Source of the DNA: Escherichia phage vB_EcoM_Lutter
Length of the DNA: 64,000 bases
Strand: one strand, 5' to 3'
Sequence record: NC_054924.1
The notes under the pieces are model-generated. The model did no database searches. It was not told the origin of the DNA and worked only from the letters and a program-made list of their open reading frames with translations. Below are positions 44,380 to 55,511 of this stretch, in pieces. Every line of letters starts with the position of its first letter. Position 1 is the stretch's first letter. The position numbers and the translations under genes were made by a program.

Positions 44380-47300
44380 ATGGCCGAGATTAAAAGAAAG
44401 TTCAGAGCAGAAGATGGTCTGGACGCAGGTGGTGATAAAATAATCAACGTAGCTTTAGCTGATCGTACCGTAGGAACTGACGGCGTTAACGTTGATTACC
44501 TAATTCAAGAAAACACAGTTCAACAATACGATCCAACTCGTGGATATTTAAAAGATTTTGTAATCATTTATGATAACCGCTTTTGGGCTGCTATAAATGA
44601 TATTCCAAAACCGGCAGGAGCTTTTAATAGCGGGCGCTGGAGAGCATTACGTACCGATGCTAACTGGATTACAGTCTCATCTGGTTCATATCAATTAAAA
44701 TCAGGTGAAGCTATTTCGGTTAACACTGCAGCTGGTAATGATATTACATTTACTTTACCATCTACTCCAATTGACGGTGATACTATCGTTCTCCAAGATA
44801 TTGGAGGAAAACCTGGAGTTAACCAAGTTTTAATTGTAGCTCCAGTGCAAAGTATTGTAAACTTCAGAGGCGAGCAAGTACGTTCAGTACTAATGACTCA
44901 TCCAAAGTCACAGCTAGTTTTAATTTTTAGTAATCGTCTGTGGCAAATGTATGTTGCTGATTATAGTAGAGAAGCTATAGTTGTAACACCAGCGAATACT
45001 TATCAAGCGCAATCCAACGATTTTATCGTACGTAGATTTACTTCTGCTGCACCGATAAATATTAAACTTCCGAGATTTGCTAATCATGGCGATATTATTA
45101 ATTTCGTTGATTTAGATAAACTGAATCCACTTTATCATACAATTGTTACTACATACGATGAAACGACTTCAGTACAAGAAGTTGGAACTCATTCCATTGA
45201 AGGCCGTACATCTATTGACGGTTTCTTGATGTATGACGATAATGAGAAATTATGGAGATTATTTGACGGGGACAGTAAAGCACGTTTACGTATCATAACA
45301 ACTAATTCAAACATTCGTCCAAATGAAGAAGTTATGGTATTTGGTGCGAATAATGGAACAACTCAGACAATTGAGCTTAAGCTTCCAACTAATATTTCTG
45401 TTGGTGATACTGTTAAAATTTCCATGAATTACATGAGAAAAGGACAAACAGTTAAAATCAAAGCTGCTGATGAAGATAAAATTGCTTCTTCAGTTCAATT
45501 GCTGCAATTCCCAAAACGCTCAGAGTATCCACCTGAAGCTGAATGGGTGACTGTTCAAGAATTAGTTTTTAACGGTGAAACTAATTATGTTCCAGTTTTG
45601 GAGCTTGCTTACATAGAAGATTCTGATGGAAAATACTGGGTTGTACAGCAAAATGCTCCAACTGTAGAAAGAGTTGATTCTTTAAACGATTCTACTAGAG
45701 CAAGATTAGGCGTGATTGCTTTAGCTACACAAGCTCAAGCTAATGCCGATTTAGAAAATTCTCCACAAAAAGAATTAGCAATTACTCCAGAAACATTAGC
45801 TAACCGTACTGCTACAGAAACTCGTAGAGGTATCGCAAGAATAGCAACTACTGCTCAAGTAAACCAGGATACTACATTCTCTTTTGCTGACGATATTATC
45901 ATCACTCCTAAAAAGCTGAATGAAAGAACTGCTACAGAAACTCGCAGAGGTGTCGCAGAAATTGCTACGCAGCAAGAAACTAATGCAGGTACTGATGATA
46001 CAACCATCATTACTCCTAAAAAGCTTCAAGCTCGCCAAGGTTCTGAATCATTATCTGGTATTGTAACTTTTGTATCTACTGCAGGTGCTACTCCAGCTTC
46101 TAGCCGTGAATTAAATGGTACAAACGTTTATAATAAAAACACTAATAATTTAGTTGTTTCACCTAAAGCTTTAGACCAGTATAAAGCTACTCCAACACAG
46201 CAAGGTGCAGTAATTTTAGCAGTTGAAAGTGAAGTAATTGCTGGACAAAGTCAGGAAGGATGGGCAAATGCTGTTGTAACGCCAGAAACGTTACATAAAA
46301 AGACATCAACTGATGGAAGAATTGGTTTAATTGAAATTGCTACACAAAGTGAAGTTAATACGGGAACTGATTATACTCGTGCAGTCACTCCTAAAACTTT
46401 AAATGACCGTAGAGCAACTGAAAGTTTAAGTGGTATAGCTGAAATTGCTACACAAGTTGAATTCGACGCAGGCGTCGACGATACTCGTATCTCTACACCA
46501 TTAAAAATTAAAACCAGATTTAATAGTACTGATCGTACTTCTGTTGTTGCTCTATCTGGATTAGTTGAATCAGGAACTCTCTGGGACCATTATACCCTTA
46601 ATATTCTTGAAGCAAATGAGACACAGCGTGGTACACTTCGTGTAGCTACACAGGTTGAAGCTGCTGCAGGAACATTAGATAATGTTTTAATAACTCCTAA
46701 AAAGCTTTTAGGTACTAAATCTACTGAAGCACAGGAAGGTGTTATTAAAGTTGCAACCCAGTCTGAAACTGTGGCTGGAACGTCAGCAAATACTGCTGTA
46801 TCTCCAAAAAATTTAAAATGGATTGTGCAGAGTGAACCTACCTGGGCAGCTACTACTGCGATAAGAGGTTTTGTTAAAACTTCATCTGGTTCAATTACAT
46901 TCGTTGGTAATGATACAGTCGGTTCTACCCAAGATTTAGAACTATATGAGAAAAATAGCTATGCAGTATCACCATATGAATTAAACCGTGTATTAGCAAA
47001 TTATTTGCCGTTAAAAGCAAAAGCTGCTGATACAAATTTATTGGATGGTCTAGATTCATCTCAGTTCATTCGTAGGGATATTGCACAGACGGTTAATGGT
47101 TCACTAACCTTAACCCAGCAAACGAATCTGAGTGCCCCTCTTGTATCATCTAGTACTGCTACGTTTGGTGGATCAGTTTCGGCAAATAGTACATTAACTA
47201 TTTCTAATACTGGAACGGCAACTCGTCTGATTTTTGAGAAAGGACCTCAAACTGGAACTAACCCAGCACAGACGATGACTATCAGAGTTTGGGGAAATCA

Positions 47301-48249
47301 GTTTGGCGGCGGTTCAGATACAACACGTTCTACTGTATTTGAAGTTGGTGATGAAACATCTAATCACTTTTATTCTCAACGTAATAAAGCTGGGAATATA
47401 ACGTTTAGTATTAATGGTACTGTGATGCCAATAAATGTTAACGCTTCCGGTTCATTGAATGCGAATGGCGTAGCAACATTTGGTAGTTCAGTTACTGCTA
47501 ATGGTGAATTCATTAGCAAGTCTGCAAATGCTTTCAGAGCAATAAACGGTGATTATGGATTCTTTATTCGCAATGATGCTGCTAATACCTATTTTATGCT
47601 CACTGCATCCGGTGATCAGACCGGTGGATTTAATGGATTACGTCCATTATCAATTAATAATCAATCCGGTCAAGTCACAATTGGTGAAAGCTTAATCATT
47701 GCCAAAGGTGCTACTATAAATTCAGGTGGTTTGACTGTTAACTCGAGAATTCGTTCTCAGGGTACTAAAACATCTGATTTATATACCCGTGCGCCAACAT
47801 CTGATACTGTAGGATTCTGGTCAATTGATATTAATGATTCAGCTACTTATAACCAGTTCCCGGGTTATTTTAAAATGGTTGAAAAAACTAATGAAGTGAC
47901 TGGGCTTCCATACTTAGAACGTGGCGAAGAAGTTAAATCTCCTGGTACACTGACTCAGTTTGGTAACACACTTGATTCGCTTTACCAAGATTGGATTACT
48001 TATCCAACGACGCCAGACGCGCGTACCACTCGCTGGACACGTACATGGCAGAAAACCAAAAACTCTTGGTCAAGTTTTGTTCAGGTATTTGATGGAGGTA
48101 ACCCTCCTCAGCCGTCTGATATTGGTGCTTTACCATCTGATAATGCTACAATGGGGAATCTTACTATTCGTGATTTCTTGCGAATTGGTAATGTTCGCAT
48201 TGTTCCTGACCCAGTGAATAAATCTGTTAAATTTGAATGGGTTGAATAA
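44380..48249 (+). CDS. 34: Long tail fibre proximal subunit gp34
   Basis: 1289 aa; internal ~40-aa repeats (T-x-T-E-T-R-R-G-x-A-x-I-A-T-Q...I-T-P-K-K-L). Confidence 0.9.
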   Translation: MAEIKRKFRAEDGLDAGGDKIINVALADRTVGTDGVNVDYLIQENTVQQYDPTRGYLKDFVIIYDNRFWAAINDIPKPAGAFNSGRWRALRTDANWITVSSGSYQLKSGEAISVNTAAGNDITFTLPSTPIDGDTIVLQDIGGKPGVNQVLIVAPVQSIVNFRGEQVRSVLMTHPKSQLVLIFSNRLWQMYVADYSREAIVVTPANTYQAQSNDFIVRRFTSAAPINIKLPRFANHGDIINFVDLDKLNPLYHTIVTTYDETTSVQEVGTHSIEGRTSIDGFLMYDDNEKLWRLFDGDSKARLRIITTNSNIRPNEEVMVFGANNGTTQTIELKLPTNISVGDTVKISMNYMRKGQTVKIKAADEDKIASSVQLLQFPKRSEYPPEAEWVTVQELVFNGETNYVPVLELAYIEDSDGKYWVVQQNAPTVERVDSLNDSTRARLGVIALATQAQANADLENSPQKELAITPETLANRTATETRRGIARIATTAQVNQDTTFSFADDIIITPKKLNERTATETRRGVAEIATQQETNAGTDDTTIITPKKLQARQGSESLSGIVTFVSTAGATPASSRELNGTNVYNKNTNNLVVSPKALDQYKATPTQQGAVILAVESEVIAGQSQEGWANAVVTPETLHKKTSTDGRIGLIEIATQSEVNTGTDYTRAVTPKTLNDRRATESLSGIAEIATQVEFDAGVDDTRISTPLKIKTRFNSTDRTSVVALSGLVESGTLWDHYTLNILEANETQRGTLRVATQVEAAAGTLDNVLITPKKLLGTKSTEAQEGVIKVATQSETVAGTSANTAVSPKNLKWIVQSEPTWAATTAIRGFVKTSSGSITFVGNDTVGSTQDLELYEKNSYAVSPYELNRVLANYLPLKAKAADTNLLDGLDSSQFIRRDIAQTVNGSLTLTQQTNLSAPLVSSSTATFGGSVSANSTLTISNTGTATRLIFEKGPQTGTNPAQTMTIRVWGNQFGGGSDTTRSTVFEVGDETSNHFYSQRNKAGNITFSINGTVMPINVNASGSLNANGVATFGSSVTANGEFISKSANAFRAINGDYGFFIRNDAANTYFMLTASGDQTGGFNGLRPLSINNQSGQVTIGESLIIAKGATINSGGLTVNSRIRSQGTKTSDLYTRAPTSDTVGFWSIDINDSATYNQFPGYFKMVEKTNEVTGLPYLERGEEVKSPGTLTQFGNTLDSLYQDWITYPTTPDARTTRWTRTWQKTKNSWSSFVQVFDGGNPPQPSDIGALPSDNATMGNLTIRDFLRIGNVRIVPDPVNKSVKFEWVE

Positions 48250-48257
48250 GAGGTATT

Positions 48258-49373
48258 ATGGAAAAATTTATGGCAGAGTTTGGACAAGGATATGTCCAAA
48301 CGCCATTTTTATCGGAAAGTAATTCAGTAAGATATAAAATAAGTATAGCGGGTTCTTGCCCGCTTTCTACAGCAGGACCATACGTTAAATTTCAGGATAA
48401 TCCTGTAGGAAGTCAAACATTTAGCGCAGGACTTCATTTAAGAGTTTTTGACCCTTCCACCGGAGCATTAGTTGATAGTAAGTCATATTCTTTTTCGACT
48501 TCAAATGATACTACATCAGCTGCTTTTGTTAGTTTCATGAATTCTTTGGCGAATAACAGACTTGCTGCTATATTAACTAGCGGAAAGGTTAATTTTCCTC
48601 CTGAAGTAGTATCTTGGTTAAGAACCGCAGGAACGTCTGCTTTTCCATCTGATTCTATATTGTCAAGATTCGACGTGTCATATGCTGCTTTTTATACTTC
48701 TTCTAAAAGAGCTATTGCATTAGAGCATGTTAAACTGAGTAATAGAAAAAGCACAGATGATTATCAAACTATTTTAGATGTTGTATTTGACAGTTTAGAA
48801 GATGTAGGAGCTACCGGGTTTCCAAGAAGAACGTATGAAAGCGTTGAGCAATTCATGTCGGCAGTTGGCGGAACTAATAACGAAATTGCGCGTCTACCAA
48901 CTTCAGCTGCGATAAGTAAATTATCTGACTATAATTTAATCCCTGGTGATGTTCTTTATCTTAAAGCACAGTTATATGCCGACGCCGATTTACTTGCGCT
49001 TGGAACTACGAATATATCCATTCGATTTTATAATGCATCTAACGGATATATTTCTTCAACACAGGCTGAATTTACCGGGCAAGCTGGTTCTTGGGAATTA
49101 AAAGAAGATTATGTGGTTGTTCCAGAAAACGCTGTCGGATTTACGATATATGCACAGAGAACTGCGCAAGCTGGTCAAGGTGGCATGAGAAATTTAAGCT
49201 TTTCTGAAGTGTCAAGAAATGGAGGTATTTCGAAACCTGCTGAATTTGGCGTCAATGGTATTCGAGTTAATTATGTCTGTGAATCCGCTTCACCTCCGGA
49301 TATAATGGTACTTCCTACACAAGCATCGTCTAAAACTGGTAAAGTGTTTGGACAAGAATTTAGAGAAGTATAA
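48258..49373 (+). CDS. 35: Long tail fibre hinge (kneecap) protein gp35
   Basis: 371 aa; synteny. Confidence 0.85.
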   Translation: MEKFMAEFGQGYVQTPFLSESNSVRYKISIAGSCPLSTAGPYVKFQDNPVGSQTFSAGLHLRVFDPSTGALVDSKSYSFSTSNDTTSAAFVSFMNSLANNRLAAILTSGKVNFPPEVVSWLRTAGTSAFPSDSILSRFDVSYAAFYTSSKRAIALEHVKLSNRKSTDDYQTILDVVFDSLEDVGATGFPRRTYESVEQFMSAVGGTNNEIARLPTSAAISKLSDYNLIPGDVLYLKAQLYADADLLALGTTNISIRFYNASNGYISSTQAEFTGQAGSWELKEDYVVVPENAVGFTIYAQRTAQAGQGGMRNLSFSEVSRNGGISKPAEFGVNGIRVNYVCESASPPDIMVLPTQASSKTGKVFGQEFREV

Positions 49374-49378
49374 ATTGA

Positions 49379-49405
49379 GGGAGCCTTCGGGCTCCCTTTT
49401 TCTTT
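49379..49405 (+). terminator. Rho-independent terminator after gene 35
   Basis: gggagccttcgggctccc hairpin followed by TTTTTCTTT. Confidence 0.65.
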
Positions 49406-49412
49406 ATAAATA
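49405..49412 (+). promoter_or_regulatory. Late promoter TATAAATA upstream of gene 36
   Basis: Exact TATAAATA about 25 nt before the ATG. Confidence 0.6.
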
Positions 49413-50109: not shown

Positions 50110-53100
50110 ATGGCTACTTTAAAACAAATACAATTTAAAAGAAGCAAAACCGCAGGTGCACGTCCTGCTGCTTCAGTATTAGCCGAAGGCGAATTGGCTA
50201 TAAACTTAAAAGATAGAACAATTTTTACTAAAGATGATTCAGGAAATATCATTGACTTAAGCATTTCCGCTGGCGGTAATATCAGTGGAAATATCACTCA
50301 AACTGGTGATTATACACAGACTGGAAAATTTAATTTAATTGGTCCACAAATTGTAGCAAGTGGTGGATATATTGAGTTTAATTATCGTACTACTGGAAGT
50401 GGGGCTTGGTCCGGTCAACACACTGCAAAAGCTCCAATTTTTGTAGATTTAAGCTCAGCTACTTCCACATCTGAATATAATCCTATAATTAAACAGCGCT
50501 TTAAAGATGGAACTTTTTCATTAGGTACTTTAGTTTCTGAAGGTTCGTTAAAGATTCATTATATTGATGAAACTGGTCAATCTAAATATTGGACATTTGC
50601 GCGCTCAGGTAATTTTCAAGTTGATTCTGGTAATTTATTAGTATCTGGTGGGTATTTAGTCGCTCAGAGTAATATTGAAACAAGAACAGGTTCTTTGATT
50701 GGTCCATCTGTTGTAACTAAAAATATTTCATTTGATACGAAAGCGTTTGGACAATATGATTCGCAGTCATTAGTTCAATATGTTTATCCTGGAACTGGTG
50801 AAACAAACGGAATTAATTACCTTCGTAAATTCCGTGCAAAATCCGGTGGTACGATTTATCATGAATTAGCTTCTGCACAAACCGGAAAAAGTGATGAACT
50901 GTCTTGGTGGACCGGTAATACAGCCGTTAATAAACAAATGGGCCTTCGCAATGATGGGTCTTTAGTATTGCGACGCTCACTCGCAATTGGTACAATTACA
51001 ACAGATGAAAACATTAATAATTACGGCTCCACTGGAGCAATGGGTGAATGCTATATAGTCATTGGAGATGCCGCAACTGGTATATCATATAAAAGATCTG
51101 GTGTATATGATTTAGTTGCTAATGGTCTTTCTATCGCGTCTATTACTCCTGACAGTTTCCGTAGTACTCGTAAAGCATTATTTGGACGCTCAGAAGATCA
51201 AGGTACAACATGGATTATGCCTGGAACGAATGCTGCATTTTTATCAGTTCAAACACAGGCTGATGAAAACGGTGCTGGAGACGGTCAGACACATATTGGC
51301 TATAATTCAGGCGGAAAAATGAACCACTATTTCCGCGGCAAAGGCAAAACTAATATTAATACTCAAGAAGGCATGGAAGTTAACCCGGGTATTCTTAAAA
51401 TAGTAACCGGTGCAAATAATGTAATGTTTTATGCTGATGGCGGTATTACATCCACTAAGCAGCTTTCAATATATAATGGTGTATATTTAGCAGCTAATAA
51501 TTCTACTGCTGGGCTAACATTCGCTCCAACTACTACAGTTGATGGCACTAAGCAAATTTTGTGGGAAGGTGGTAAGCGCGCTGGACAGAATAAAAGCTAT
51601 GTAACTGTTAAAGCGTGGGGTAATTCATTTAACGCATCTGGCGATCGTAATCGTGAAACAGTTTTTGAAGTAGCTGACGGACAAGGTTATTATTTTTATG
51701 CGCAGCGTGTAGCTCCTGCATCAGGTTCAACAACTGGAGTAATTCAATTTAGAATTGCTGGAGCATTATTAACCGGTGGGGGTATTACATCATCAGGTTC
51801 TATTGTTACTGAGTCAAGTTTAGTTGCAAATAATGGATTGTCTGTAAATGGACAAGCTAAATTTGGTGGAACAGCAGATGCATTAAGAATTTGGAATGCT
51901 GAATACGGTGCTATTTTCCGCCGTTCGGAAACTAACTTTTATATTATTCCAACTTTACAAAATGCTGGAGAATCGGGCGGTATAAGTAATTTACGCCCAT
52001 TTACCATCAATCTCGCAAATGGTAGTGTTATGATGGGCAATCATACACAAGCCGGAAAAAATTTGCTTACTATTGATAACGTATCAAAATTCGTTCAAAC
52101 CGATGTTAGACTTCGAGTTAATATGGATTCTGACGCTATTGTGGTAAATGCTTCATCTCAAGCTGCATCTAACTTTATTCAAGGACGTAAGGCTGATGTT
52201 ACAAAATGGTATTTAGGTATTGGCGATGGCGGAAACGTCGTTCGTATGCATAATTACACCTACTCTCACGGTATTGCATTAAACTCTGATACTGTCGATA
52301 TTACTAAGCCTCTTAAAATTAATGATATTCGAATTGGTACAGATGGTAACATCACAGGTGGTACTGGTAATTTTGCTAACTTAAATACAACGTTAAATCG
52401 TAAAACCAGCGTGGGCGGTTGGGCTGGTAGTTCTGTTGACGGATGGTATAAATTTGCTACGGTAACAATTCCTCAGGGTACTGGTACAGTGACTTTTAAG
52501 ATTTCCGGCGGCGCTGGTTTTAATTTTAAAAGCTATAGCCAAGCTTCTGTTGCAGAAATAGTTCTTCGCACGGGTAATAATCCTAAAGGCATAAACGCTG
52601 TACTGTGGAATAGGTCAGACCTGAGTTTTAATCAGATAGCTACTATGAATACATCTGGCGATACTTATGATGTATACGTGTTCTGTGCCGGTTATACAAA
52701 TGCATTAGTGGTTGAATATTCCTGTAGTGAAAACTCTTCGGTAACCGTAGTCGGTCTTAACGGAGGCATTCAGCCAGTTGTTGATGCATTGCCTGAGGGA
52801 CATGTTGTAGGTAAAACAGTTCGTCTGTTAAATAATATTGGCGGAACTTTCGCAGCTGGAGAATCTAACATTGTTACTCGCGGTGAATACGTTACTGATA
52901 ATCAAAAAGGCATGCGTATTAAATCTAACGGTAATAATATCGGTTCTAACGCAGCTTTAATTAGAAATGATGGCGGAAGTTTTTATATTTTAGCTACAGA
53001 TAAAAATACGGAAGAAAAACCCGATGCAGCTAATGGTGATTGGAATGGCTTAAGACCTTTCTCTATTAATATGACTGATGGCCGCGTTAGTATGAACCAC

Positions 53101-53985
53101 GGGTTGAATATTACTGGCGGTGGATTAAACGTTACTGGTGGTAATACTAGCTTAGGTAATATCTCGTCTCGTTTGGTTTCATACGCCCGCGCGCCATCTG
53201 GATGGGGAGATACCTCAGATGCCATGAAATCTAAAATCACCTTTATGGCAGACCACGGGGATTTATCTAATTCAGACAGTTATTATCCTATTGTCGGTGC
53301 ATACAGCAACTATGGTTCAGCGGGTTATCGTCAAACATTTGAATTTGGATGGGTCGGCTCTGGTACCACCGCTGGATGGCGAGAAGGTATTATTCGTATT
53401 CGCGGTGATAATGCTAATGGCCAGCAAGCAAGATGGCGATTTACAATGGATGGTATTTTAGATTGCCCGGGTAAAGTACAGATGCCACAAACAAGCGCAT
53501 TTGGCGTCAATACAACAAATGGATGGGGTGGTAACTCCATTGCAATTGGTGATAGCAATACTGGTTTTAGACAAGTAGGCGATGGGCTTTTAGAAGCGTG
53601 GGCGAACAATGTTAAAGTTGTTAGATTCACCTCAGGTGAAGTTTATTCCGAGAAAAACGTTAACGCTCCTAATGTTTACATTCGTTCTGATGTTCGCTTG
53701 AAATCTAATTTCAAACCTATTGAAAACGCGCTCGAAAGGGTTGAGCAACTTGATGGTTTAATCTATGATAAAGCTGAATATATAGGCGGTGAGCCTGTTC
53801 AAACTGAAGCGGGTATTATAGCTCAAACGTTGCAAGACGTTTTACCAGAAGCTGTCCATGAAACAGAAGACAGTAAGGGTAATAAAATACTCACTGTTTC
53901 TTCTCAAGCCCAGATTGCTCTTCTGGTTGAAGCTGTGAAAACACTTTCTGCTCGTGTAAAAGAACTTGAATCTAAACTTATGTAA
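50110..53985 (+). CDS. 37: Long tail fibre distal subunit gp37 (long, T2-like type with a C-terminal chaperone-like domain)
   Basis: 1291 aa; N-terminus MATLKQIQFKRSKTAGARPAASVLAEGELAINL; segments homologous to gp34; C-terminal ~99 aa resemble an intramolecular chaperone domain. Confidence 0.85.
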   Translation: MATLKQIQFKRSKTAGARPAASVLAEGELAINLKDRTIFTKDDSGNIIDLSISAGGNISGNITQTGDYTQTGKFNLIGPQIVASGGYIEFNYRTTGSGAWSGQHTAKAPIFVDLSSATSTSEYNPIIKQRFKDGTFSLGTLVSEGSLKIHYIDETGQSKYWTFARSGNFQVDSGNLLVSGGYLVAQSNIETRTGSLIGPSVVTKNISFDTKAFGQYDSQSLVQYVYPGTGETNGINYLRKFRAKSGGTIYHELASAQTGKSDELSWWTGNTAVNKQMGLRNDGSLVLRRSLAIGTITTDENINNYGSTGAMGECYIVIGDAATGISYKRSGVYDLVANGLSIASITPDSFRSTRKALFGRSEDQGTTWIMPGTNAAFLSVQTQADENGAGDGQTHIGYNSGGKMNHYFRGKGKTNINTQEGMEVNPGILKIVTGANNVMFYADGGITSTKQLSIYNGVYLAANNSTAGLTFAPTTTVDGTKQILWEGGKRAGQNKSYVTVKAWGNSFNASGDRNRETVFEVADGQGYYFYAQRVAPASGSTTGVIQFRIAGALLTGGGITSSGSIVTESSLVANNGLSVNGQAKFGGTADALRIWNAEYGAIFRRSETNFYIIPTLQNAGESGGISNLRPFTINLANGSVMMGNHTQAGKNLLTIDNVSKFVQTDVRLRVNMDSDAIVVNASSQAASNFIQGRKADVTKWYLGIGDGGNVVRMHNYTYSHGIALNSDTVDITKPLKINDIRIGTDGNITGGTGNFANLNTTLNRKTSVGGWAGSSVDGWYKFATVTIPQGTGTVTFKISGGAGFNFKSYSQASVAEIVLRTGNNPKGINAVLWNRSDLSFNQIATMNTSGDTYDVYVFCAGYTNALVVEYSCSENSSVTVVGLNGGIQPVVDALPEGHVVGKTVRLLNNIGGTFAAGESNIVTRGEYVTDNQKGMRIKSNGNNIGSNAALIRNDGGSFYILATDKNTEEKPDAANGDWNGLRPFSINMTDGRVSMNHGLNITGGGLNVTGGNTSLGNISSRLVSYARAPSGWGDTSDAMKSKITFMADHGDLSNSDSYYPIVGAYSNYGSAGYRQTFEFGWVGSGTTAGWREGIIRIRGDNANGQQARWRFTMDGILDCPGKVQMPQTSAFGVNTTNGWGGNSIAIGDSNTGFRQVGDGLLEAWANNVKVVRFTSGEVYSEKNVNAPNVYIRSDVRLKSNFKPIENALERVEQLDGLIYDKAEYIGGEPVQTEAGIIAQTLQDVLPEAVHETEDSKGNKILTVSSQAQIALLVEAVKTLSARVKELESKLM

Positions 53986-54015
53986 AAGAGGGCTTCGGCC
54001 CTCTAAGGATTTTTA

Positions 54016-54822
54016 ATGGCAATTGTAGGTGTTCCTGGCTGGATTGGCGAATCTGCCGTGAATGAAACTGGACAACGTTGGATGGATGCTGCGATGAGAG
54101 CAGTTCGTGTTTCAGTTCCCGGTTGGATGAGTTCAATGGCAGGAAAGTCAGTTGAAAAAGCTTATTCAATTGGCTCAAATCATTCATATAATAAAGATAC
54201 TTTAATTAATTGGCTTAAATCAATTGGAACAGCTCCTGCTGTTGTAACAATAACAGGAGATATTGTTTCTAGTTCTTCGACTATTCCATGTTTAGATTTT
54301 CCTAGTTCATTAACTAATGAATATGTGACATTGATTATTAACTCTGGCGTTACTGTTTATGGCCGAGGAGGTAATGGATCTGGATCTAGTGGAGGTTCTG
54401 GAGATGCTTTAGTTCGAGCAACTGCTGGCGGTACGGCTATTAATAATGGTATTGGTACACGCTTACGTATTACGAATAATGGCGCAATCGCTGGCGGTGG
54501 CGGTGGTGGAGGTGGTTGGTCCATAGACTATAACTTCACATTAGGTAATGTTGCTGGTGGTGGAGGCGGACGTCCTTTCGGTACTGGTGGTCGAGGTGGT
54601 CGAGGTAATGGTGGTAATGCATCGTTAACCGCCGCAGGTGGTAAAGTAACTGTTGATGGTAATAACATGAGTGGTGCGGGTGGTAATGTTGGCTCAGCTG
54701 GTGGCGCTGCTGTTCGTACATCAAACTTTCAAACTAGTGGCGCTGGCGCTGCGGGTAAAGCTGTTACCGGAAATGCCCCAACATGGACTAAGGTTGGTAC
54801 AATATACGGTTCAAGAGTATAA
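54016..54822 (+). CDS. 38: Receptor-recognising adhesin gp38 (T2-type, glycine-rich motifs)
   Basis: 268 aa; conserved N-terminal half then several poly-Gly motifs separating short variable segments. Confidence 0.8.
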   Translation: MAIVGVPGWIGESAVNETGQRWMDAAMRAVRVSVPGWMSSMAGKSVEKAYSIGSNHSYNKDTLINWLKSIGTAPAVVTITGDIVSSSSTIPCLDFPSSLTNEYVTLIINSGVTVYGRGGNGSGSSGGSGDALVRATAGGTAINNGIGTRLRITNNGAIAGGGGGGGGWSIDYNFTLGNVAGGGGGRPFGTGGRGGRGNGGNASLTAAGGKVTVDGNNMSGAGGNVGSAGGAAVRTSNFQTSGAGAAGKAVTGNAPTWTKVGTIYGSRV

Positions 54823-54854: not shown

Positions 54855-55511
54855 ATGGCAGCACCTAGAATATCATTTTCGCCCTCTGATATTCTATTTG
54901 GTGTTCTAGATCGCTTGTTCAAAGATAACGCTACCGGGAAAGTTCTTGCTTCCCGGGTAGCTGTCGTAATTCTTTTATTTATGATGGCGATTGTTTGGTA
55001 TAGGGGAGATAGTTTCTTTGAGTACTATAAGCAATCAAAGTATGAAACATACAGTGAAATTATTGAAAAGGAAAGAAATGCACGCTTTGAATCTGTCGCC
55101 CTGGAACAACTCCAGATAGTTCATATATCATCTGAGGCAGACTTTAGTGCGGTGTATTCTTTCCGCCCTAAAAACTTAAACTATTTTGTTGATATTATAG
55201 CATACGAAGGAAGATTACCTTCAACAATAACTGAAAAATCACTTGGAGGATATCCTGTTGATAAAACTATGGATGAATATGCAGTTCATTTAAATGGACG
55301 TCATTATTATTCCAACTCAAAATTTGCTTTTTTACCAACTAAAAAGCCTACTCCCGAAATAAACTACATGTACAGTTGTCCATATTTTAATTTGGATAAT
55401 ATCTATGCTGGAACGATAACCATGTACTGGTATAGAAATGATCATATAAGTAATGACCGCCTTGAATCAATATGTGCTCAGGCGGCCAGAACATTAGGAA
55501 GGGCTAAATAA
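54855..55511 (+). CDS. t: Holin T
   Basis: 218 aa; N-terminal transmembrane segment and large periplasmic domain; N-terminus MAAPRISFSPSDILFGVLDRLF. Confidence 0.9.
   Translation: MAAPRISFSPSDILFGVLDRLFKDNATGKVLASRVAVVILLFMMAIVWYRGDSFFEYYKQSKYETYSEIIEKERNARFESVALEQLQIVHISSEADFSAVYSFRPKNLNYFVDIIAYEGRLPSTITEKSLGGYPVDKTMDEYAVHLNGRHYYSNSKFAFLPTKKPTPEINYMYSCPYFNLDNIYAGTITMYWYRNDHISNDRLESICAQAARTLGRAK

Follow-up and report, generated by a model that had tools for sequence, protein, structure and literature searches.

For gp38, deletion analysis and a model of glycine-rich motifs (GRMs) and hypervariable segments (HVSs) have been reported together, the canonical scheme of Trojet et al. comprising five GRMs and four HVSs (PMC3157838). 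The structure of gp38 and its docking mode have also been described: in S16, three tryptophans, located on three short helices, dock into the gp37 trimer (PMC6851490). The earlier note on this DNA held that the segments between the glycine motifs set receptor specificity, and this is upheld by the literature (PMC3157838; PMC12032242; PMC12892980; bioRxiv 10.64898/2026.04.02.716166). HVS swaps as well as point changes can switch the receptor (bioRxiv 10.64898/2026.04.02.716166; PMC12892980); in other T-even phages, such a switch was obtained by swapping gp38 from HVS2 onward or by a single HVS3 substitution (bioRxiv 10.64898/2026.04.02.716166). In PP01 gp38, cross-links were obtained between loops D and E and loops 5 and 7 of OmpC; loop E, the integrity of which is essential, provides the main contact to OmpC (PMC12892980). 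Modelling of this complex relied on cross-link restraints, as models made without them proved unreliable (PMC12892980).

vB_EcoM_Lutter is a T4-like myovirus isolated on a STEC O104 strain (PMC7471380). The window considered here is the whole 64-kb stretch of its DNA that was analyzed. Its gene 38 almost certainly encodes a monomeric T2/S16-type adhesin, expected at the very end of the long tail fibre. The exact protein is public (YP_010071999.1 / QLF82168.1, vB_EcoM_Lutter), with the annotation "tail fiber protein; host specificity", and its UniRef name is "Receptor-recognizing protein gp38". Descriptions and annotations already exist for the gp38 family, including its structure and modular logic, and for this very protein.

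Gene 38 in its tail-fibre block

As the earlier note had reported, an ORF of 268 aa follows gene 37. It is intact, lies on the plus strand, opens with an ATG, preceded 6 nt upstream by an AAGGA ribosome-binding site, and closes with a TAA at 54820-54822. The gap between the stop of gene 37 (50110-53985, 1291 aa) and gene 38 is 30 nt, and a further 32 nt separate gene 38 from holin gene t (54855-55511, 218 aa), the product of which is assigned to holin T by Pfam (E 8e-116). Upstream of gp37, gp36 was found by Pfam, while the gp34 (44380-48249) and gp35 (48258-49373) labels were given because T2, CrRp10, and KRT47 have matching ORFs. Judged from these assignments, the locus is a T-even 34-35-36-37-38-t tail-fibre block, and the same order is found in T2, FJ1, CrRp10, and KRT47.

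No exact late promoter motif (TATAAATA) was found between 49412 and gene 38, so that a late promoter of its own, sought for gene 38 by exact match between gene 36 and gene 38, was rejected. Since the nearest exact upstream late promoter lies before gene 36, this suggests a late transcript covering genes 36, 37, and 38, which would be co-transcribed and probably starts at the 49405 promoter. A hairpin in the 37/38 intergenic region (-13.4 kcal/mol) was rejected as a terminator, its z-score against shuffled sequences being only -1.7 and no T-run following it directly. Scans for tRNAs and Rfam families gave no match across the whole 64-kb window.

Two Pfam families account for the protein, namely Gp38_N (PF21721), matched by residues 1-42 (E 8.5e-18, 64.5 bits, cut-off 25), and GP38 (PF05268), matched by residues 47-268 over the full profile, 1-218 of 218 (E 1.7e-66, 224.6 bits, cut-off 25). 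With phmmer, two entries only were retrieved among PDB sequences: 6f45_D (E 4.7e-43), which is the adhesin in the tip complex of S16 gp37 and gp38, and 9v85 (E 5e-41), in which the receptor-binding domain of PP01 gp38 is fused to GFP. A tblastn search against about 50,000 phage genomes yielded 761 records matching gp38, nearly all of them from enterobacterial T-even relatives.

Motif layout and predicted fold of gp38

The two parts of the protein differ strongly in composition, the Gly content being 8.7% in residues 1-115 vs 32.7% in residues 116-268. Chance composition does not account for this richness, as Pfam GP38 is matched by the protein as a whole, at the E-value given above. Boundaries were drawn from alignments with 19 and 13 reference gp38s, including T2, T6, Ox2, M1, PP01, S16, RB51, RB3, KRT47, CrRp10, Bas45, FL12, FL44, and others, and a layout of five GRMs and four HVSs was obtained (Table 1), which together with the Pfam and S16/PP01 matches bears out the T2-family tip-adhesin layout proposed in the earlier note. 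These boundaries are our own assignment, and GRM2 is drawn more narrowly by Lutz et al.

Table 1. Positions in the window of gene 38, of its domains and segments, and of the neighbouring features (res, residues of the encoded protein; AF2, AlphaFold2).
Feature	Positions	Strand	Basis
T4-type late promoter TATAAATA before gene 36	49405..49412	+	Exact motif search
Body of gene 37, distal half-fibre shaft	50110..53523	+	Pfam gp37_trimer, Gp34_trimer; 47.5% identity to T4 gp37 res 1-849
gp37 distal tip, res 1139-1192, surface predicted to be capped by gp38	53524..53685	+	Aligned to S16 gp37 in 6f45_A; FJ1-type sequence
gp37 C-terminal intramolecular chaperone, then tail to 1291 and stop	53686..53985	+	PF13884, E 8.4e-14
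Gene 38, T2/S16-type receptor-recognising adhesin	54016..54822	+	ORF; PF21721 and PF05268; PDB 6f45_D, 9v85; exact protein YP_010071999.1
N-terminal attachment domain, res 1-42	54016..54141	+	Gp38_N, E 8.5e-18; three Trp aligned with S16; AF2 helices
First part of central beta-helix, res 43-114	54142..54357	+	AF2 strands 48-115, pLDDT 89-98; aligned with S16/PP01 beta-helix
GRM1, YGRGGNG, res 115-121	54358..54378	+	G116, R117, G118, G119 invariant in 83 homologues; alignment
HVS1 / loop A, SGSSGGSGDALVRATA, res 122-137	54379..54426	+	Alignments; PP01 loop A equivalent
GRM2 (broad sense), res 138-167	54427..54516	+	Strands 142-144, 150-154, 157-159; invariant columns
HVS2 / loop B, WSIDYNFTLGNVA, res 168-180	54517..54555	+	Alignment; polymorphism hot spot in subtype
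GRM3, GGGGGRPFGTGG, res 181-192	54556..54591	+	G184, G185, P187, G189 invariant
HVS3 / loops C and D, RGGRGNGGNASLTAAGGKVTVDGNNMS, res 193-219	54592..54672	+	Alignment; nearly invariant within subtype
GRM4, GAGGNVGSAGG, res 220-230	54673..54705	+	G220, G222 invariant
HVS4 / loop E, AAVRTSNFQTSGA, res 231-243	54706..54744	+	Alignment; polymorphism hot spot 238-240
GRM5 and conserved C-terminus, GAAGKAVTGNAPTWTKVGTIYGSRV, res 244-268	54745..54819	+	G247 invariant; strands 250-252, 256-259, 262-264

The earlier note had described the Gly-rich part as four poly-Gly blocks separated by short non-Gly segments. All four are present verbatim, namely GGNGSGSSGGSG (residues 118-129), AGGGGGGGGW (159-168), AGGGGGRPFGTGGRGGRGNGGNA (180-202), and GAGGNVGSAGGAA (220-232). 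However, that description omitted a fifth motif, G244-AAGKAVTGNAPTW, which is less Gly-dense than the other GRMs, and two of its blocks include variable residues, since the HVS residues concerned happen to be Gly-rich in this lineage: block 1 reaches into HVS1 (SGSSGGSGDALVRATA) and block 3 into the first residues of HVS3 (RGGRGNGG). GRM2, taken broadly, is made up of GG, a beta-helix return (TAINNGIGTRLRITNNGAIA), and a G8 run at 160-167, and its invariant residues among 83 homologues are G138, G139, I142, N144, G147, L150, N154, I158, G163, and G165. The columns invariant in these 83 homologues are nearly all occupied by GRM glycines, and across subtypes the identity amounts to 55-100% in the GRMs vs 0-38% in the HVSs.

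The AlphaFold2 model of gp38, built with 83 homologues, has a mean pLDDT of 91.3 and a pTM of 0.86. Confidence dips solely in the HVS blocks, with pLDDT dropping to 78 for residues 121-130 in HVS1, which is modelled as a small hairpin. In a Foldseek comparison against the PDB, this model matched only 6f45_D (TM 0.81/0.87) and 9v85 (TM 0.76/0.92), the next match having an E-value of 0.9. The predicted fold is a central beta-helix combined with a three-layer polyglycine-II sandwich; the predicted strands of the beta-helix span residues 48-115, 142-159, and 250-264, and GRM5 with the C-terminus is predicted to close it. Helices are predicted in the N-terminal domain at 10-18, 23-29, and 38-41, and W9, W22, and W37 align with all three docking tryptophans of S16. 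W9 and W22 are conserved in at least 90% of the 83 homologues, while a Tyr takes the place of W37 in the N-terminus of the Krischvirus-like type. By alignment, PP01 loops A to E map to residues 122-127 and beyond, 170-179, 193-197, 212-217, and 233-240.

The gp38s of S16 (PDB 6F45) and PP01 (PDB 9V85), both OmpC binders, are thus matched in predicted fold with TM values of 0.76-0.92. Common features are the three docking Trp, the beta-helix with its polyglycine-II sandwich, and a gp37 tip of the S16 type, while sequence identity is 43-47%. In contrast, sequence differences from S16 and PP01 are found in every one of the five distal loops, loop A being about twice as long here, and the two excursions forming the sandwich cover about 24 and 90 residues vs 18 and 77 in S16 (PMC6851490).

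The gp37 partner, T4, and gene integrity

Residues 1139-1289 of gp37 match the S16 gp37 fragment that was crystallized with gp38 (6f45_A, E 2.2e-8). The Peptidase_S74 match (PF13884, E 8.4e-14) covers residues 1193-1250 and starts with SDVRLK. Judged from the family, gp37 would cleave itself at Ser1193 after trimerisation, and its C-terminus would then lie near Arg1192. Over the last 240 or so alignment columns, gp37 is close to T2 gp37, with block identities of 70-100%.

With T4, the locus has in common its position and a homologous gp37 shaft. T4 gp38, however, is an unrelated 183-aa chaperone, and in place of this arrangement the present locus combines a gp37 with S16-type tip and S74 chaperone domain with an adhesin. 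That gene 38 might nevertheless encode a T4-type assembly chaperone that stays outside the virion and leaves receptor binding to gp37 could be supposed from its position after gene 37 and from those homologue records which are labelled "distal long tail fiber assembly catalyst". In a direct tblastn test, this reading of the locus was rejected at the sequence level. The T4 gp38 chaperone has no match in the whole 64-kb window (best E 3.9, outside the locus), and no tail-fibre-assembly chaperone family was matched by Pfam in the ORFs scanned. Furthermore, T4 gp37 aligns in the window over its residues 1-849 only, and its last 250 residues find a match at positions 4-73 only, inside the 1-849 stretch; the receptor-binding tip of T4 gp37 is therefore without counterpart in the window, and its structure is absent among the PDB matches of the gp37 C-terminus. 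As solved adhesins are matched both in sequence and in predicted fold, the probability left to a T4-type chaperone is negligible, and the gp37-plus-gp38 tip that the earlier note had preferred to the T4 arrangement is supported at the sequence level, also by the 6f45_A match and the S74 domain. The low-complexity composition of the C-terminal half raises another question, namely whether this half has decayed or is a low-complexity relic, the gene being non-functional here; in one bacterial assembly, the gene is indeed split into ORFs of 190 aa and 70 aa. Such decay is very improbable: the ORF is uninterrupted and preceded by a ribosome-binding site, every GRM glycine invariant in the 83 homologues is retained, the AF2 model is confident, and the protein is identical to that of Lutter, an isolated, plaque-forming phage. 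In addition, the cluster of gp38s at 90% identity or more has 54 members, and 11 of the 15 listed are full-length proteins of 268 aa.

For the adhesin of the T2/S16 type, a course of events can be proposed, all steps of which are drawn by homology with S16 and PP01. Late in infection, genes 36, 37, and 38 would be expressed, and gp37 would trimerise with the aid of its own C-terminal chaperone domain, which would then cleave itself off at about Ser1193. A single gp38 would cap the exposed end of the gp37 trimer by means of three N-terminal helices, each contributing one Trp (W9, W22, and W37). The rest of gp38 would form a five-ring beta-helix, from which two long excursions (about 116-139 and 160-249) would build the three-layer polyglycine-II sandwich out of the GRMs. 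The HVSs would then be the turns at the distal end of the sandwich, i.e., loops A to E, which jointly would make up the receptor-binding face. Reversible binding of these loops to an outer-membrane component would be the first step of adsorption and would set the host range.

The loop-set subtype, its exchange, and its receptor

By its HVSs, this gp38 belongs to a discrete loop-set subtype found in Lutter, FJ1, G8, and IsaacDaniel. Each HVS is at least 77% identical in Lutter, FJ1, IsaacDaniel, G8, and the metagenomic P0001 and P0003-P0005, and the more divergent P0002 has the same loop set at 69% or more. The Lutter protein is identical to the one studied here, and that of FJ1 is 99.6% identical; at the DNA level, gene 38 of the Hafnia phage IsaacDaniel and of G8 is 96 and 94% identical, respectively. 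The gp38s of FJ1, G8, and IsaacDaniel differ by few substitutions, mainly at positions 170 and 177 in HVS2 and 238-239 in HVS4. Within the subtype, recurrent polymorphisms are found in HVS2 (170 I/V, 171 D/N, 177 G/A, and 178 N/G) and in HVS4 (238-240 FQT/YNT/YNA/YYT), while HVS3 is nearly fixed; this clustering fits a fine-tuning at the putative contact loops B and E. Compared with T2, KRT47, PP01, S16, and T6, HVS1 has six additional residues, at about D130-T136, and it exceeds that of Ox2 by about three. A long HVS1 is not unique to the subtype, since a comparable length is found in another lineage (P0104 and P0118). E. coli, Shigella boydii, and Hafnia paralvei have all served as isolation hosts for phages with the subtype loop set.

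The flanking DNA is mosaic. In the gp37 shaft (50810-53100), the DNA is 90-100% identical to that of CrRp10 and SH-2, while from about 53500 to the end of gene 38 it is 86-100% identical to FJ1 and only 57-83% to others. Given this switch of identity near 53500, and since the gp37 shaft of FJ1 is largely unrelated to the present one, the gp37 tip, the chaperone domain, and gp38 have moved together as one recombination cassette. Exchanges are also seen within gp38 itself. The gp38 of Shigella phage SH-2 is a natural chimera with an N-terminus and HVS1 of the KRT47 type followed by HVS2 to HVS4 of the subtype, and P0006 likewise has HVS2 to HVS4 of the subtype after a foreign HVS1. The full loop set can be found on a Krischvirus-like N-terminus, as in P0003 to P0005, or on a T6/Ox2-like body, as in P0024. 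Such shuffling of gp38 agrees with the modular evolution known for the family (PMC3157838).

With regard to the receptor, identity was computed segment by segment against the gp38s of T2 (FadL), RB51 (OmpF), PP01, S16, and KRT47 (OmpC), Ox2, FL12, and Bas45 (OmpA), and RB3 and FL44 (Tsx), as well as more than 100 database homologues, and M1 (OmpA) and T6 (Tsx) were compared in a 14-sequence alignment. The alignment with T2-family gp38s such as T2, T6, and Ox2, proposed in the earlier note, does reveal similarity, and the variable segments could be assigned from it. T2 gp38, which recognizes FadL, has the same family, gene position, and architecture and is 60.5% identical overall, with 73% identity in the N-terminal 114 residues and 73-100% in the GRMs. 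In HVS1 to HVS4, in contrast, identity to T2 is 19, 8, 33, and 23%, HVS1 of T2 being shorter by the six residues mentioned above and its HVS3 carrying a KIGSD insertion; with such low values, the FadL specificity is not transferable. Outside the subtype, the nearest receptor-assigned type among those compared is that of KRT47, ECP2301, and CrRp10, with 70-72% identity, and the fibre shafts of these phages are likewise the closest. KRT47 needs OmpC; the identity of this type to the present gp38 is only 12-31% in the HVSs, so that OmpC is not to be assumed either. More generally, no HVS exceeded 38% identity to any compared gp38 with an assigned receptor, whether FadL, OmpF, OmpC, OmpA, or Tsx. 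Assignment by homology was therefore rejected, as the receptor cannot be inferred from HVSs with at most 38% identity to receptor-assigned adhesins.

Literature searches found no genetically mapped receptor for Lutter, FJ1, G8, or IsaacDaniel. FJ1 and G8 are absent, by name and by accession, from the supplementary tables of the 2026 receptor-screen preprint, and the subtype is absent among the receptor-mapped phages (BASEL, FL/AV, and RB) of the phage collection searched. For FJ1, adsorption was reduced by 48% after periodate and unaffected by proteinase K, from which its authors infer an LPS receptor (PMC10035155). This is the only adsorption experiment found for a phage with a gp38 of the subtype. 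Beta-barrel outer-membrane proteins in intact cells generally resist proteinase K, and periodate also disturbs the LPS-dependent secondary adsorption via gp12. The assay therefore does not discriminate, and its outcome fits a carbohydrate primary receptor or a protease-resistant beta-barrel with LPS-dependent secondary binding alike.

It can accordingly be asked whether, for the loop set of this T2-type adhesin, the primary receptor is a carbohydrate of the LPS core or O-antigen and not a beta-barrel protein of the customary range (Tsx, OmpA, OmpC, OmpF, FadL, or OmpW). The gp38 of FJ1 being 99.6% identical, the sensitivity of this phage to periodate and its insensitivity to proteinase K (PMC10035155) would speak for sugars, as would the span of the loop set over phages of E. 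coli, Shigella boydii, and Hafnia paralvei. Gp38-bearing phages of Cronobacter and Enterobacter are reported as LPS users (PMC10194368), and loop B of PP01 may contact LPS sugars (PMC12892980). However, the FJ1 assay reads equally well with protease-resistant barrels and gp12-mediated secondary adsorption, and the gp37 shaft of FJ1 is very different. Moreover, in the studies consulted, the genetically mapped gp38s of E. coli Tequatrovirus, Mosigvirus, and Krischvirus phages all use a porin-type protein (PMC12032242; bioRxiv 10.64898/2026.04.02.716166), and a carbohydrate as primary receptor is thus rather unlikely. Considering the longer loop A and the lack of meaningful loop similarity to receptor-assigned gp38s, the receptor of the subtype could conceivably lie outside the known T-even repertoire (Tsx, OmpA, OmpC, OmpF, FadL, and OmpW), a suggestion which is put forward tentatively and with low confidence. 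In that case, a further protein of the outer membrane would be a candidate, as would an LPS/core carbohydrate common to E. coli, Shigella boydii, and Hafnia paralvei.

As an adhesin, gene 38 is a textbook, ordinary member of its family, with little discovery value and some practical value. A receptor outside the known T-even repertoire would, if true, be of moderate interest. The cassette made of the gp37 tip and gp38 provides a further example of the swapping of host specificity in T-even phages. Gene 38 is presumably the host-range determinant of the phage, and mapping the receptor of its subtype would fill a gap in the sequence-based prediction of receptors for T-even phages.

Mosaic structure of gene 37 and the tip cassette

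Two types of sequence can be found within gene 37, which encodes the fibre component carrying the gp38 adhesin. While the shaft is of the type found in phages CrRp10 and SH-2, the last ~160 codons of the gene, together with the whole of gene 38, are of the type found in phage FJ1 (see the table). Such a change of affinity marks a recombination junction within gene 37, so the gp37 tip, the chaperone domain and the gp38 adhesin were swapped as a single cassette. Two additional patches can be observed inside gene 37, one of them T2-like over its first part and the other shared with CrRp10.

Segments and elements around genes 37 and 38
Feature	Coordinates	Observation
gp35, residues 58-126	48258-49373 (whole gene)	Pfam match to ILEI (PF15711), E 9e-7
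Gene 37, first patch	50310-50700	Only 57-77% identity to CrRp10 over the whole patch; 98% T2-like at 50310-50500, 84% at 50510-50609, down to 55% by 50610
Gene 37 shaft	50810-53100	CrRp10/SH-2-type, 90-100% nt identity
Gene 37, second patch	52010-52300	99-100% identical to CrRp10; blastn finds nothing equivalent in T2 or FJ1
End of gene 37 and gene 38	within 53100-54822	FJ1-type, 86-100% nt identity
Hairpin with UUCG tetraloop	53987-54004	between gene 37 stop and gene 38 ribosome-binding site

Further elements

The hairpin preceding gene 38 has a perfect 7-bp stem (AGAGGGC-UUCG-GCCCUCU; -13.4 kcal/mol), and its counterpart in the record of phage G8 is annotated as a putative terminator. Since no T-run directly follows it on the 3' side, it may instead be an mRNA-stabilising or processing element. 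Neither tRNA genes nor Rfam families at gathering score were found in the whole 64 kb (1-64000); T-even genomes have a tRNA cluster elsewhere.

Regarding gp35, the proximal hinge connector, the match to ILEI (interleukin-like EMT inducer) lies just over threshold (29.7 bits for a cut-off of 27) and may reflect a common small beta-rich domain or be marginal.

Natural variants of the adhesin

The gp38 of Hafnia phage IsaacDaniel is near-identical to that of Lutter but lacks W22, the second docking tryptophan, as residues 22-28 lie in QRCVDAA-SAV where QRWMDAAMRAV is otherwise found. Either the difference arose in sequencing, or the interface with gp37 tolerates it. In an E. coli TPA assembly, the Lutter gp38 is split into two ORFs of 190 aa and 70 aa (P0122 and P0123). 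The 168-kb contig that holds them bears the label E. coli but probably comes from a phage, its glycine-rich region being interrupted by a frameshift or an error in sequencing.

Other variants combine hypervariable segments of different origin. The HVS2-HVS4 set of the Lutter subtype is associated with a KRT47-type HVS1 in gp38 of Shigella phage SH-2 (L007 and L020), and with another foreign HVS1 in protein P0006. Both are natural chimeric adhesins, and they reveal exchange points at GRM2, the glycine-rich motif between HVS1 and HVS2, inside the specificity domain of gp38 itself.
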